A stretch of DNA of 64,000 nt, taken from NCBI GenBank assembly GCA_964016885.1, contig OZ024760.1, positions 31,248,001 to 31,312,000 of the forward strand, read 5' to 3'. The notes beneath the pieces are model-generated. The model made no database searches, had not been told where the DNA came from, and worked only from the letters and a program-made list of their open reading frames with translations. Below, in pieces: positions 2,348 to 60,065 of this stretch (position 1 is its first letter; each line of letters starts with the position of its first letter). The stretch is from Eledone cirrhosa. Taxonomy: Eukaryota. A program made the position numbers and the translations under genes.

Positions 2348-2940
2348 TTCCAACTTGTGTGCTCCTTCTTCACATTTTATTATTATATATATATGCACCT
2401 ATATATATATATATATATATATATATATATATATATATATATATATATATATATATATATATATATATATATATATATATATATACATATATATATATAC
2501 ACACATATATATATATATATAATCATCATCATCTTCGTTTAACGTCCATTTTCCACGCTAGCATGGGTTATACATACATACATATTACATATATATATAT
2601 ATATATACATACGTACATATATATATATATACATATATATATACATATATATATATATATACATGTACATATATATATAAATATATATATATATGCATAT
2701 ATATATATATATATAGATGTTGAGAGTGAGAGTGGAAAGTGGGGGTGGGGGAGACCAATGCCATCCAATAGAATGACACCAGAAGTGGAACTAATCTAAC
2801 TTTAGAAGAAATATCAATGAAACACACACACACACACATATATATATATATGTAAGTATTCTAATTATATATATATATATATATATATATATATATATAC
2901 GATATTAAACAAATGGAAACTATATTTATAAAACCATATT

Positions 2941-3006
2941 TATTTCATTATACATATTTCAGGGATACCATATTAAAAATATGGCATGCCTTCTTCAGAT
3001 AAAATA
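2941..3006 (-). ncRNA. Type I hammerhead ribozyme motif (mirror copy of 3158-3223)
   Basis: Exact reverse complement within the palindrome. Confidence 0.78.
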
Positions 3007-3157
3007 CAATATATAAGCAGTTTTATAAATAAATTTGACGTACCATAAAATATTGATCAACTTCCATTTAAAAAACTACCAAACCAACTTTTTTAAATGG
3101 AAGTTGATCAATATTTTATGGTACGTCAAATTTATTTATAAAACTGCTTATATATTG

Positions 3158-3223
3158 TATTTTATCTGAAGAAGGCATGCCATATTTTTAATATGGTATC
3201 CCTGAAATATGTATAATGAAATA
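3158..3223 (+). ncRNA. Type I hammerhead ribozyme motif (family A)
   Basis: tattttat-CTGAAGA-stem II aggcatgccatatt/aatatggtatccct-GAAA-tatgt-ATA-atgaaata; 8-bp stem I; predicted cleavage after 3215. Confidence 0.8.
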
Positions 3224-3353
3224 AATATGGTTTTATAAATATAGTTTCCATTTGTTTAATATCGTATATCTACTCCAAAACTTGTTGAGTGCTTTATATC
3301 AGTTATAAAAATATTTGCTTGTTGTATCCCAATAATTTAAATAGAACTTCTAC

Positions 3354-3742
3354 ATATATATATATATATATATATATATATATACATATGTATATATATA
3401 TATGTATATATATATATGTATATATATATATATATATATGTATATATATATATATATATATATATATATATATATATATATATATATATATATATATACA
3501 TATGTATATATATATATATGTATATATATATATATGTATATATATATATATATATATGTATATATATATATATATATATATATATATATATATATATATA
3601 TATATACATATGTATATATATATATGTATATATATATATGTATATATATATATATATATATATATGTATATATATATATATATATATATATATATATATA
3701 TATATATATATATATATATATATATATACATATGTATATATA
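3354..3742. repeat. (TA)n/(TATG) microsatellite; many similar tracts across the window
   Basis: Direct reading. Confidence 0.95.
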
Positions 3743-4087
3743 TCATCATCATCATCATCATCATCGTTTAACGTCCACCTTCCACGCTTGCATGGGTTTG
3801 GGCGGGAGTTTTCCCACTTGAGGCAAGATTGGTTGTCCTGCTCGCATAGGACTGTCTGGCGGGTTTTCTATGGCTGGATGCCCTTCCTAACACCATCCAC
3901 ATTTACAGTGTGTACTGGGAGGTTTTTACCGTGTTACCTACACGGCCACATTACAGCGTGGACTGTGTGTTTTTTTGTCGTGACACCTACACGACCTCAT
4001 TTGTTTAGGACTGGATGTTGTGGTACCAACATAACTTTACATTGAAAGGTGTGGTGTGGATGGGGTGGGGGTAGTGGTACGGGGGTG
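3743..4087 (-). mobile_element. RTE 3' UTR fragment with (GAT)n tail
   Basis: Same family as 1960-2347 and 27750-28360. Confidence 0.8.
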
Positions 4088-4204
4088 TATATATATATAT
4101 ATATATATATACAGTATATATATATATACTGTATATGTATATATATATATATATATATATATATATATATATATACACACATATATATATATATGTATGT
4201 GTAT

Positions 4205-4345
4205 ATAGTCCAGAAATAGCCGTCGAAACGGCTTGAGCTCTGCCGTCGGGGTCATACTTTTTCCTATTTCCCACTCTACTACCCTAAGTATTGAGTACTC
4301 TGGTGCGTTATGGTCCATCTGGTTCCTTACCACAATTCCTTTTTT
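4205..4345 (+). mobile_element. Short dispersed element (family C), single arm
   Basis: agaaatagccgtcGAAACGGCttgagctctGCCGTCgggg...ggttccttaccacaattcc; four more copies in the window. Confidence 0.7.
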
Positions 4346-56478: not shown

Positions 56479-56682
56479 GGGTAATTTACTATTTTACGTT
56501 CGTAAACTAAACGATTCCCGAATGTCAATAAAAAAAAAACTTTATTAAAATTAATACAAATTACTGATAACTTGCAGCATTTTCAATTGTTATCAGTAAT
56601 TTGTATTAATTTTAATAAAGTTTTGTTTTTTATTGACATTCGGGAATCATTTAGTTTACGAACGTAAAATAGTAAATTACCC
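56479..56682. repeat. Palindrome with arms of about 97 bp
   Basis: gggtaatttactattttacgttcg... / ...cgaacgtaaaatagtaaattaccc. Confidence 0.9.
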
Positions 56683-56787
56683 CCCAAAAGATAGTTTATT
56701 ACCAACCACGTCCGAATGTCTCTCAAAACGAAAAAAATTCGAAGACGTAAACAAACTTTACACGTCATCATCAATAGCCCCTTTCGA

Positions 56788-57112
56788 CCTTACCGAGGTG
56801 TCGGTGTTCCTGGTTGTTGGTTGTTCCAGCTCCTTAGCTTCGCCATCACCCGGCCTTACCGAGGTGTCGGTGTTCCTGGTTGTTGGTTGTTCCAGCTCCT
56901 TAGCTTCGCCATCACCCGGCCTTACCGAGGTGTCGGTGTTCCTGGATGTTGGTTGTTTCAGGTCCTTAGCCTCGCCATCACCCGGCCTTACCGAGGTGTC
57001 GGTGTTCCTGGATGTTGGTTGTTTCAGGTCCTTAGCCTCGCCATCACCCGGCCTTACCGAGGTGTCGGTGTTCCTGGATGTTGGTTGTTCCAGTTCCTTA
57101 GCCTCGCCATCA
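56788..57112. repeat. 66-bp GC-rich tandem repeat x5
   Basis: Unit starts ccttaccgaggtgtcggtgttcctgg. Confidence 0.95.
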
Positions 57113-57164
57113 CGCGTGGTAATGCTGCGAGGGTGTTGGCTTGCCTCAAAGTGTTTAGTTAACC

Positions 57165-57509
57165 CAGAAGTTCTCAAACCTTTGGGGACATCGCCCCCTT
57201 ACGGCCACATAATACCCTCAGTACCCCCAACCCTATTTCCAGAGAGATCTGTCTACACGCAAAATGTATATATAAAAGATATATATATATAAATATAAAT
57301 ATATATATAATAAATAAATTCATTAATTTATATATAATAAATAATATAATATATACTATGTATAAACAAATATATATTTTATATTTTACTACATTTATAT
57401 ATAATATGTAACATTTGATATTTAATATACTATTATATCATCTCTACTGCCCCCTTAGGCAACCCTGGCCCTTCTCAATGTCCCTTAGCGTCCACTTAGA
57501 GAACCTTTG
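57165..57509. mobile_element. hAT-family MITE
   Basis: 8-bp TSD agttaacc; TIRs cagaagttctc / gagaacctttg match the hAT at 52858. Confidence 0.8.
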
Positions 57510-58359
57510 AGTTAACCCCTACGACGTAAGGAAAACACCAAATGGTCGTTAAAATAAAATGCAAGTAACTCAATGTGAATCGATTAAATCGACTAAGGTG
57601 TGGCCGATTGTCGCACTTGGTGGTGAATTGCACACCTGTTCAATGAGTTATATATAAAAAATGATATCCTTGTTATATACTCAATATATATTTTATTCTA
57701 TGCTAAATAAAAATACGTCAGAAAAATATTAAAAATTATGGAAGATTAAACACACCAATTAAAATTTATCATTATAGCTGTGAAGGGTGATATTATAATA
57801 TTGTTTTTATATGGGCACAAGGCCAGCAATTTTGGGGGAGAGGAAAGTCGATTAAATCGACTCCAGTGGGTGACTGGTACTTTATTTTACCGACCCCGTA
57901 AGGATGAAAGGCAAAGTTAACCTCGGCGGGATTTGAACTCAGATCATAAAGGGCCATAACTCTATGCTGCAAAGCATGGTACCCGAGGGTGGTGTTATAA
58001 ATATTGCCAGAAAATATATAGTAAAACACACAGACTAGCAATATAGGTGAGGGGCGGTCGAGCGTTTCTGGGGTGATGGTCCAGATTTGGTCAATTTAGT
58101 TGTAGTGATTAGTTTAGCTGTTATCAAATATCAACCAAGATATTAAAACACTTTGATATATTATAAACATAACATGTACATAAATGTACACATATGTGTT
58201 TGTGTATGGGTGTTTGTATATGTATGTGTATGTTTGTATCTGTTTATATATATGTGTGTGTGTATGTATATGTGTGTATATGTATGTATATATAAAACCA
58301 TATGTTGATTTAAAACTTCACTATTCTCAAGTGTTTTTAAGCTTCATATCATGTATCCC

Positions 58360-58430
58360 TATTTTATCTGATGAAAACGCAGATATCATCCCAGGATGAT
58401 ATTTGTTTTTGAAATGCGCATAATAAAATA
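58360..58430 (+). ncRNA. Type I hammerhead motif (family A-related)
   Basis: tattttat-CTGATGA-about 16-bp stem II-GAAA-tgcgc-ATA-ataaaata; stem III is the palindrome atgcgcat. Confidence 0.82.
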
Positions 58431-59994
58431 CTTGGAACTCTTTTAACCATCTTTTGATCTTATATTATATATATATATATATATATATATATATATATAT
58501 ATATATATATATATATATATACACATACACATACATATATATATATCATCATCATCATCATTTTACGTCCACTTTTCCCTGCTTGCAAGGGTATATGTAT
58601 ATATATATATATATATATATATACACACACACCCTTGCAGAACAAAAGATGGTTAAAAGAGTTCACAGTATTATGATGATGATGATATATATATATATGT
58701 ATGTGTGTGTGTATATATATATATACACACATATACACACACACATACACACACACAAATACACATATACAAACACACATACACATATACAAACACACAC
58801 ACACATATATATACACACACACACATATATACAAACACAGATACACCCATACACACACATATTTATTTGTATTATCAACTAAACAGAAATTGAAAGTGAA
58901 AACTATATTTCATAGAATTTCGTCAGATTTATTCGCAGTAACATTTTCAACTACGGTTTCTCTATATAAAGAATTTGCCATATAAAACCATTTATAAGTG
59001 AGTTGCTGACATATTAGACGGTCATATCTTCTCGCCGTTCCCTTTTTGGTAAGTATTAAACTTTTATTAACAGTTGTATAAATGACATTACAAATCGTTT
59101 GTCATTCTTTCAGAATGAAAATATAAACAAGGCATATAAATAAATTCACAGTAGAATAACATAACAAATATGTTTTAAATATATACATAAATAACATTAC
59201 AAATGCTTAGACAACATTATAAATGAACCTAATACTTTATTTCATAAATATATCCTTCATAGTTGCACAAACAACATTACAAATCGTTTGCAATTCCTTC
59301 AGAATGAAAATATAAACAGAGCATATAAATAAATTTACAGTAGAATAACATAACAAATATGTTTTAAATATATATTACTCGCGATTCTTTCAGAAAGATA
59401 TATTCTTTTAATGTTACAATATTGTTACTTTTTGATCTACCCTATCTTATATTCTACTTTTACTTTTTACATCTGTAACTTCTCTACCTATTTACCATAC
59501 ATGTATTATTATTGTCGGACGCCATTCTTTGGCGCATAGAGTTACGGCCCTTGCCATTCTGGTTCAAATCCCGTCGAGGTTAACTTTGCCTTTCATCCTT
59601 ACGGGGTCGATAAAATAAAGTACCAGTAATACACTGGTTAATTGCTGGCCTTGTGCCAAAAGTAGAAACAATTATTATTGATGTCATTGTTTTAATTATA
59701 CGCTATTTCTCTATATAAGTCTTGCCTCGAGTGAATTATTTTCATATCTACATGGTCTGATGTGTTGACGATAGGTGAATAATGTATTGGAGATCAAATA
59801 ACGCAACATCAAGCGATTAGCGAACTCTAGACCCACATGATCAACGAAACAATTGTCAGTACTTTAAATAAAGCCCTTATTGTACAGCCAACCATGTTAA
59901 TCTTCATTCTTTAACCATATATATATATATATATATATATATATATATATATATATATAATATAAGATCAAAAGATGGTTAAAGGAGTTCCATA

Positions 59995-60065
59995 TATTTT
60001 ATTATGCGCATTTCAAAAACAAACATCATCAAACAATAATATTTGTGTTTTCATCAGATAAAACA
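59995..60065 (-). ncRNA. Type I hammerhead motif (same family as 58360)
   Basis: tgttttat-CTGATGA-aaacacaaatattatt..gatgatgtttgttttt-GAAA-tgcgc-ATA-ataaaata; upstream region 60160-60575 is duplicated in tandem (about 200 bp). Confidence 0.8.

Follow-up and report, generated by a model that had tools for sequence, protein, structure and literature searches.

Dispersed type I hammerhead motifs and their probable Penelope-like parent elements in Eledone cirrhosa

The association of hammerhead ribozymes with Penelope-like elements (PLEs) is already known. Cervera and de la Pena (2014, PMC4209133) described hammerheads in the pseudo-long terminal repeats (pLTRs) of these elements, together with thousands of solo motifs, and reported weak activity of dimers. 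Craig et al. (2021, PMC8557442) described the layout of the Hydra clade, its targeting of TA and its hammerheads, and listed few Hydra families outside cnidarians, one of them from Octopus (Hydra-1_Obim, from Octopus bimaculoides). Frangieh et al. (2024, PMC11167929) described, for the Poseidon element PAc of the green anole, two internal starts of reverse transcription, a tail, protein-assisted cleavage and the use of uncut RNA as template. The literature covered also includes PMC6765202 and PMC6962438. Here, we analysed the hammerhead motifs in a 64-kb window of the genome of the cephalopod Eledone cirrhosa (contig OZ024760.1, C21 in our numbering, positions 31,248,001 to 31,312,000; assembly of 3.0 Gb), in which TA microsatellites and retroelement debris are abundant. 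Positions are those in the whole window, and "L" numbers denote individual genomic loci outside the window that were fetched for comparison.

We consider it highly probable that these motifs are type I hammerheads in the terminal repeats of at least five PLE families, where they would cut the RNA of the element itself, slowly or only with help. As we classify them, the families of the window are Hydra-type (A1-A3, B and C), Neptune-type (D) and a 1.95-kb derivative without open reading frame (ORF; family E). What is added to the known association is a structural variant present in tens of thousands of copies and a record of the breakpoints at which the copies end.

The Hydra-type elements share with the clade of that name (PMC8557442) the C-terminal GIY-YIG domain, the RWx and DKT motifs, the CxCx5C linker and a terminal CxxC or CxH, as well as (TA)n targets and inverted and tailed copies. 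Family C also resembles the hammerheads of that clade, in many of which a short stem II begins with U.U at its base and stem III, of 3-4 bp, ends in GUA. Unlike the clade as described there, the elements studied here fall into six or more subfamily groups, their ends number tens of thousands and their 3' untranslated regions (UTRs) are 0.4-3 kb long; among the Hydra hammerheads in the available part of that list none has the layout of A, B or E, and the Hydra-1_Obim motif matches no hammerhead of the window. The minimal hammerheads of metazoan PLEs (PMC4209133) are likewise type I motifs in pLTRs, mostly single and dispersed and coming from truncated elements, with opposite-strand pairs 100-700 bp apart and a small palindromic helix III in some. 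Family D alone fits their consensus (an extra base after A9, G10.1-C11.1, a 6-bp stem II and a 5-bp stem I), whereas A, B, C and E lack both the extra base and G10.1-C11.1. Family A also differs in its stem I of 8 bp, which continues as a longer rod. The invariant C.Y mismatch does not appear in the part of that paper covered here. Finally, Poseidon PAc (PMC11167929) is similar in its main and tail 3' ends near the start of the ORF, its AT-rich targets, its hammerhead at the junction of pLTR and ORF and its use of uncut RNA as template. It belongs to another clade than the elements of the window, whose hammerheads lie upstream of the start codon and are known from sequence alone.

Hammerhead motifs of the window and their parent elements

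An earlier note on this DNA had listed 11 type I hammerhead motifs, and all of them were found at the expected positions and strands (Table 1). Each has the core CUGANGA...GAAA...UH, closed by stems I and II and with the open end in stem I. The stems quoted in that note are present in the sequence, and the cuts it placed after 3215, 15525 and 58422 are correctly positioned. A general type I descriptor recovered 10 of the 11 motifs, while in 40 local dinucleotide shuffles it matched 0.025 times on average and at most once; stricter descriptors recovered 6 and 9, and all descriptors gave 0.02-0.06 matches per shuffled window. The motif missed by the general descriptor, 52075-, has four contiguous pairs in stem I and reads as complete; a covariance model whose training copies came from other families detected it at E 5e-4. 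The 11 motifs represent nine insertions, since 2941-/3158+ and 55817-/55968+ are inverted arms of single insertions. Four damaged copies come in addition to those previously listed (26697+, 27429+, 28906- and 28960+). At E<=1 Rfam gave 139 matches in the window, nearly all of them microRNA models on microsatellites and none a hammerhead or other ribozyme, and at gathering score it gave nothing in six parent loci. The view that these families are unannotated is thus correct for Rfam, but PLEs have been annotated in Octopus vulgaris (PMC13282606) and a hammerhead-bearing Hydra element is listed for Octopus bimaculoides (PMC8557442).

Table 1. Hammerhead motifs of the window, the insertions that carry them and associated features
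Feature	Positions	Strand	Remarks
Family A2 insertion	2900..3353	.	two inverted 5'-truncated pLTR arms, + arm tailed, between (TA)n tracts; 96-99% to L285
Hammerhead A2, long stem II	2941..3006	-	predicted cut after 2949; covariance-model support; core-to-core sequence has 632 exact genomic matches
Hammerhead A2	3158..3223	+	predicted cut after 3215
TATA-box-like 8-mer, candidate pLTR promoter	15451..15458	+	starts 30 nt 5' of the first base of hammerhead C
Hammerhead C1, U.U at base of 3-bp stem II, 4-bp stem III	15481..15531	+	predicted cut after 15525; solo 3' end of Hydra-type element, 99-100% to both pLTRs of full-length L272
Family D insertion, Neptune-type PLE	24127..26953	.	two inverted 5'-truncated arms; 95% to full-length L052; tail on + arm is the start of the ORF
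Hammerhead D, extra base before 6-bp stem II, G10.1-C11.1	24272..24316	-	predicted cut after 24277; about 200 nt beyond stop codon
ORF remnant: reverse transcriptase (RT) thumb, Cx4CxxC linker, GIY-YIG endonuclease	24517..25497	-	
Hammerhead D, second arm	26697..26741	+	core damaged (A15.1 changed to G)
Hammerhead C2	27377..27429	-	predicted cut after 27384; one arm of inverted insertion ~27368-27560
Hammerhead C2, partner arm	27429..27474	+	truncated at core start, 5' strand of stem I gone
Inverted pair of C-type remnants (28906-, 28960+)	28906..29004	.	both truncated within core (C3 gone)
Hammerhead A3	31339..31398	+	predicted cut after 31390; first stem III pair broken, intact elsewhere in the family; insertion ~31285-31540; 92% to L179
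Family E insertion	52030..55615	.	5'-truncated arm of ORF-less 1.95-kb unit (- strand) and inverted tail; interrupted by DNA transposon at 52858-55257
Hammerhead E, U.U base, long stem II with C.C, palindromic stem III	52075..52132	-	predicted cut after 52079
Family A1 insertion	55690..56072	.	two inverted arms, - arm tailed, between (TA)n/(TG)n tracts; 97% to L243
Hammerhead A1	55817..55881	-	predicted cut after 55825
Hammerhead A1	55968..56032	+	predicted cut after 56024
Hammerhead B1, 15-bp stem II, perfect 8-nt palindrome in stem III	58360..58430	+	predicted cut after 58422; 98% to L176
Hammerhead B2, insertion separate from B1	59995..60065	-	predicted cut after 60003; 96% to both L180 ends

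The derivation from PLEs, which had been proposed without a link to any element, now has one for every family. Longer genomic copies of A-D have the same hammerhead end behind an ORF with RT and GIY-YIG, and the window copies are 92-100% identical to their parent loci. The parent of D, L052, is complete. It consists of pLTR, an ORF of 1227 amino acids (aa), pLTR and an inverted truncated copy, and each of its repeats contains the motif. For the ORF remnant of D in the window, 123 of 41,091 candidates were scored, which gives at least 123 near-identical copies. Of 10 family C loci selected for long ORFs, 6 have the motif directly upstream of an intact ORF of 713 aa and a second time downstream of it; the structure model of this protein (predicted local distance difference test, pLDDT, 88.5) has telomerase RT as its best structural match (E 2e-8). 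For B, L180 is near-complete with an 800-aa ORF, and L176, the truncated parent of B1, has a Hydra-type ORF upstream of the end. Such an ORF also lies upstream of the end of A1 in L243, L244 and L248 (with a 3' UTR of 1.6 kb in L243) and of A2 in three of seven loci (L285-L287), while a Hydra-type endonuclease lies upstream of A3 in L179; in the longer copies of A1, A2 and A3 an AT-rich 3' UTR connects the hammerhead end to the ORF. In L181-L184 each end of the 1.95-kb unit of E bears the motif, and inside the unit no match to a PLE protein was found. Its layout is PLE-like (partial-tandem, inverted, tailed and TA-targeted), and on this ground we regard family E as a non-autonomous PLE derivative.

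The proteins of L180 and L272 contain RWT or RWR, DKT, the CxCx5C linker and a terminal CxH, and the Hydra-type linker and end motifs also occur in L179, in L285 and, with one change, in L243. By these protein motifs and their (TA)n targets, A, B and C are assigned to the Hydra clade. The D protein (L052) has a Cx4CxxC linker before the C-terminal GIY-YIG and a DKSG motif; we place it in the Neptune clade under a provisional name, Nematis having the same linker. The single ORF with telomerase-like RT and C-terminal GIY-YIG that defines endonuclease-bearing (EN+) Penelope-like elements was found in L052, L180 and L272, and partial tandems of pLTRs, an inverted 5'-truncated copy, a tail and a hammerhead inside the pLTR were found as well. 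Pfam gave a weak GIY-YIG match (E 0.017) in one of these three PLE proteins and no RVT_1 match in any, missing the PLE RT, and a PDB sequence search with the D protein returned nothing informative. The insertions have inverted arms and two alternative 3' ends, in keeping with published accounts of PLEs (PMC8557442, PMC11167929), and 75 of 90 family C tails continue into (TA)n.

Motifs of this kind are very abundant in the genome. Exact patterns gave 51,670 matches for the long-stem class and 26,737 for class C, and the reversed patterns none; the genome contains at least 78,000 hammerhead-bearing ends. A descriptor applied to 20 evenly placed samples of 10 kb matched 11 times in 200 kb, a few of these matches being unconfirmed singletons, against 10 times in the 64 kb of the window and 0.2 in shuffles. 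This sampling yields a density of about 1 per 18 kb, with a 95% range of about 80,000-295,000 genome-wide. The window, for which about one motif per 6 kb was first given, is about 2.8 times richer than the genomic samples. The copies are young, 94-100% identical across chromosomes, and 5 of 30 A1 copies are damaged or cut short.

Several observations on these elements stand apart from the argument. Young complete or near-complete PLE copies with open frames of 713-1227 aa are present at L180 (2362-6498), L272 (830-6705) and L052 (2076-7784). In A1, A2, A3, B, C and E the tail opens with a small hairpin just 3' of the main end (e.g. 3272-3292 and 27498-27517); its arms have the same few letters in common, and the hairpin is a candidate RT start signal. 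A tail-only A-class remnant without ribozyme adjoins the D insertion (26955-27076). About 100 nt 5' of hammerhead E lies a GC-richer structured segment (52195-52275, - strand; z -1.6) without Rfam match, near which several copies end. At least eight further type I hammerhead families are absent from the window (L010, L018, L041, L055, L076, L087, L128, L231 and others); in many of them the stem III insert is a 4-nt palindrome, and in some a long stem II contains an unpaired C. Three candidates were rejected. The 30 best-scoring copies had made A1 look like a self-contained element of 270 nt with a fixed 5' end, which was ruled out by a position-ordered sample in which 12 of 30 copies extend into the long 3' UTR and ORF. 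An HDV-like (hepatitis delta virus) fold at the 5' end of A1 was dropped by eye for want of P2, and the ORF beside the A1 pair in L190 is a separate insertion and not that of A1.

Folding of the motifs and a long-stem variant

To study covariation, 235 long-stem copies were grouped into 19 clusters of at least two members, single-copy clusters being excluded, and one representative was taken from each. In the resulting alignment 98.2% of stem cells are paired, against 37-55% in slid registers, and 43 cells are changed on both sides, against 13.0+-3.2 in shuffles (0/500). Double changes affect seven of the nine pairs of stem II. Hence, the stem covariation claimed in the earlier note stands for stem II of the A/B class, though not for the overall number of pairs with a double change, to which we return below. 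Subfamilies whose stems have been rewritten keep the same catalytic core and U-H cut site.

The fourth position of stem II is unpaired in all 19 representatives of the A/B class, with C opposite C (16) or U (3), and hammerhead E likewise has a C.C mismatch in stem II. The pair at the base of this stem is A-U or G-U in A/B (18/19) and U.U in C and E; in these families it is not G-C. A, B and E thus have in common an A-U or U.U base, a stem II of 7-15 bp, an unpaired C at its fourth position and a self-complementary stem III of 8 nt. The long-stem fold is probably an undescribed hammerhead variant. In the literature covered, from which subscription papers are mostly absent, we found neither a long-stem fold with unpaired C nor a start site at the ribozyme, and cephalopod PLE hammerheads appear in one supplementary entry only (Hydra-1_Obim). 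Lunse et al. are said to have presented many hammerhead variants in 2017, with which the A/B/E fold may overlap.

The 8-nt insert of stem III is self-complementary in 18 of the 19 representatives and does not fold as a hairpin; its duplexes are predicted at -2 to -10 kcal/mol. In both sequence and computed folding the stem III of A, B and E fits a dimer, while D does not fit this pattern and C could fold either way. The palindromic stem III previously attributed to the motifs in general is therefore found in A, B and E but not in C (4-bp stem, 8-nt loop) or D (2 bp with a non-palindromic loop). Their description as minimal hammerheads is in the same way true of some families only, A, B and E having 7-15 pairs in stem II. 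As for activity as dimers, the claim was overstated: the close pairs of the window lie on opposite strands and cannot partner on one RNA. Hence, they are not the dimer partner, a role that only a direct repeat of the pLTR or another RNA could fill.

The 5' ends of copies and the proposed use of the ribozymes

In the cycle that we propose, the element protein would nick AT-rich DNA, as in the known PLE cycle, and reverse transcription would start at two internal sites just past the ribozyme, producing the main end and the tail end. Because of these internal starts even the shortest copies would carry the ribozyme, and the tens of thousands of solo motifs would result from them and not from host use. 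Selection would act on active master elements, in which core and pairing are kept across subfamilies, and the copies would then decay. A, B and E would need a second copy, either on a pLTR-ORF-pLTR transcript or in trans, since their stem III should be stable only as an 8-bp intermolecular helix; C could fold alone. As copies keep the whole ribozyme, most templates of reverse transcription would be uncut RNA. Cutting would then come on the side or afterwards, to release unit RNA from read-through or, in family C, to uncap the mRNA.

The 5' ends of copies bear on this cycle. For family C we used an anchor independent of the ribozyme, the tail word, and took the first 90 matches on contig C1 (13,193 in all); 58 passed the main-subfamily filter, and removal of one row of another subfamily and two apparent duplicates left 55. 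With C3 as position 0 and stem I starting at -6, 21 of the 55 copies have their 5' end at -7 to 0 and 3 at -99 to -8, while 13 end farther upstream and 3 near the cut (+35 to +41). Among the inverted partners, 19 of 28 end at -6 to 0. The first base of the TATA word is at -36, exactly 30 nt upstream of stem I; in four family C subfamilies with differing spacers the word holds a position of -35 to -37, many copies of the other subfamilies having been retrieved with a query that contained the word. These ends at the start of the ribozyme, 30 nt below a TATA word, would be explained most simply if transcription began with the first base of the ribozyme and RT ran off the end of the uncut RNA, giving the short copies.

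The pile-up might also arise by joining at the near-palindromic stem I, or by an exonuclease or RT stopping at the base of the fold, and we give this a chance not far below even. Most of the piled-up copies are inverted pairs, and the 5' strand of stem I is indeed nearly palindromic. The hot spot of family B sits on a palindrome and has no TATA box, the TATA-like word of A1 is only about 21 nt from the A1 hot spot, and 8 of 10 listed pLTRs that lead into an ORF reach far upstream of the site. Yet, four solo copies without inverted partner end there too, both arms halt at the same -6/-7 limit, and the TATA word keeps its place even though the spacer has diverged. In the other families the 5' hot spots lie at -88 to -79 in A1 (18/30) and at -73 to -68 in B (17/29, a query-biased count), with no well-placed TATA. 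A pile-up of seven arms at -118 to -103 in family E adjoins the edge of the query and is not used as evidence.

A splice-donor-like word was also noticed near these ends. It lies at 55930-55937, about 47 nt upstream of the core and about 44 nt downstream of the A1 5' hot spot, and recurs at equivalent places in A2, A3 and other long-stem subfamilies. Penelope of Drosophila has a TATA-less internal promoter and an intron 46 bp below the start (PMC2377424). Spliced copies were absent from the 30 loci inspected.

Of 31 arms of family D, 4 begin at +34 to +37; the predicted cut is at +35, and a uniform distribution would give 0.5 (P ~0.002). The count excludes rows belonging to a sister family as well as arms that consist of the tail only, and D is one of four families examined. 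This is a hint of cleavage, no more. One may go further and read all these ends jointly, a proposal that we make tentatively and find somewhat doubtful as a whole. The 5' ends of copies would then record the RNA templates used in vivo. The ribozyme of C would be the 5' leader of the mRNA, from which the predicted cut would remove a capped piece of 45 nt, a switch between RNA that is translated and copied and RNA without a cap. The D copies starting at the cut would be reverse transcripts of cleaved RNA, and A/B/E would form an undescribed variant in which the invariant unpaired C of stem II makes a tertiary contact.

A number of results weigh against the interpretation of the motifs as PLE ribozymes that cut their own RNA. 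Pairs with a double change are no more numerous than in shuffles (8 vs 6.2; 65/500), the aligned rows are kin while the statistics are not tree-aware, and stem I and the first pair of stem III were partly imposed by the search patterns. Of the families in the window, all but D are without G10.1-C11.1, and the majority of cut sites read AUA; either feature usually lowers hammerhead activity. The monomer folds of C and E are no stabler than shuffles (z 0.44 and -0.69). The motif C2 (27377-) is tied to C1 by sequence only and to no ORF of its own. Partner arms starting at the predicted cut number 0 of 29 in A1 and 0 of 10 in B. Finally, mutants of the anole element ribozyme had no effect on insertion in vitro (PMC11167929). 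In this light, the fold might be kept as a binding or positioning structure for the element protein or for the promoter, its catalysis being vestigial. That most copies seem to come from uncut RNA and that the base of stem II is non-canonical agree with such a role, as do the dispensability of cleavage and the absence of read ends at the cut in the anole element (PMC11167929). But core and U-H cut site stay unchanged where the stems of subfamilies are rewritten, and the four D arms start at the predicted cut. We think vestigial catalysis unlikely and retain self-cutting PLE ribozymes as the better account.

The motifs could further belong to non-LTR (long terminal repeat) retrozymes, in which small non-coding units lie in tandem, self-cleave and form circles. 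The type I motifs with weak stem III and low GC, the ORF-less unit of E with its two terminal motifs and a double C end, found once in L272, its two members 366 nt apart, point in this direction, and a 2026 preprint derives retrozymes from pLTRs (Li et al.; bioRxiv 10.64898/2026.07.22.740005). Family E shares with the described retrozymes (PMC7229834 and the same preprint) a non-coding unit with one type I hammerhead, presumably moved by PLEs. However, no motif of the window is in a tandem array, and A, B, C and D run upstream into PLE ORFs, which contradicts a retrozyme origin of these four. The E unit itself spans 1.95 kb, against 170-400 nt (PMC7229834) or 51-972 bp (the preprint), occurs in partial tandems and inverted arms instead of arrays, and is known from DNA alone. 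A retrozyme origin of the motifs thus appears improbable. Least credible, to the point of being very hard to believe, is the recruitment of dispersed copies by the host as ribozymes regulating neighbouring genes: seven copies do lie inside introns of a host gene (~15750-34614, + strand), but the copies are young, sit in microsatellites and decay, as the damaged A1 copies show, and within these introns the intact ones are 0 of 4 in sense against 2 of 3 in antisense, few as these cases are.

Neighbouring features and significance for Penelope-like elements

This host gene has exons on the + strand at ~15750-15792, 18790-19580, 29314-29646, 32167-32262 and 34299-34614. A GRIP-like domain at its end (atlas score 0.89) is a lead to its identity, and the gene is presumably quick-to-court-like. 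The DNA transposon nested in the E element has terminal inverted repeats of 13 bp with one mismatch and an 8-bp target duplication; we take it to be hAT-like. Two broken retroelements of another kind, at 46429-49023 (+) and 61163-63959 (-), carry RVT_1 and C-terminal restriction-like motifs and are unrelated to the hammerheads.

The hammerheads of PLEs are weak in vitro and were dispensable for transposition in the sole reconstituted system, and no cleaved ends have been found in RNA-seq. Hydra-type elements are far more abundant here than the few families reported outside cnidarians would suggest, and with them a large class of ribozyme motifs escapes Rfam. Since this genome has several families that are young, ORFs that are intact and over 78,000 ends, their function in the transposition cycle becomes testable by counting 5' breakpoints against cut and start sites, family by family. 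If the joint interpretation of the ends is true, the D copies starting at the cut would be the missing in vivo trace of PLE ribozyme activity.

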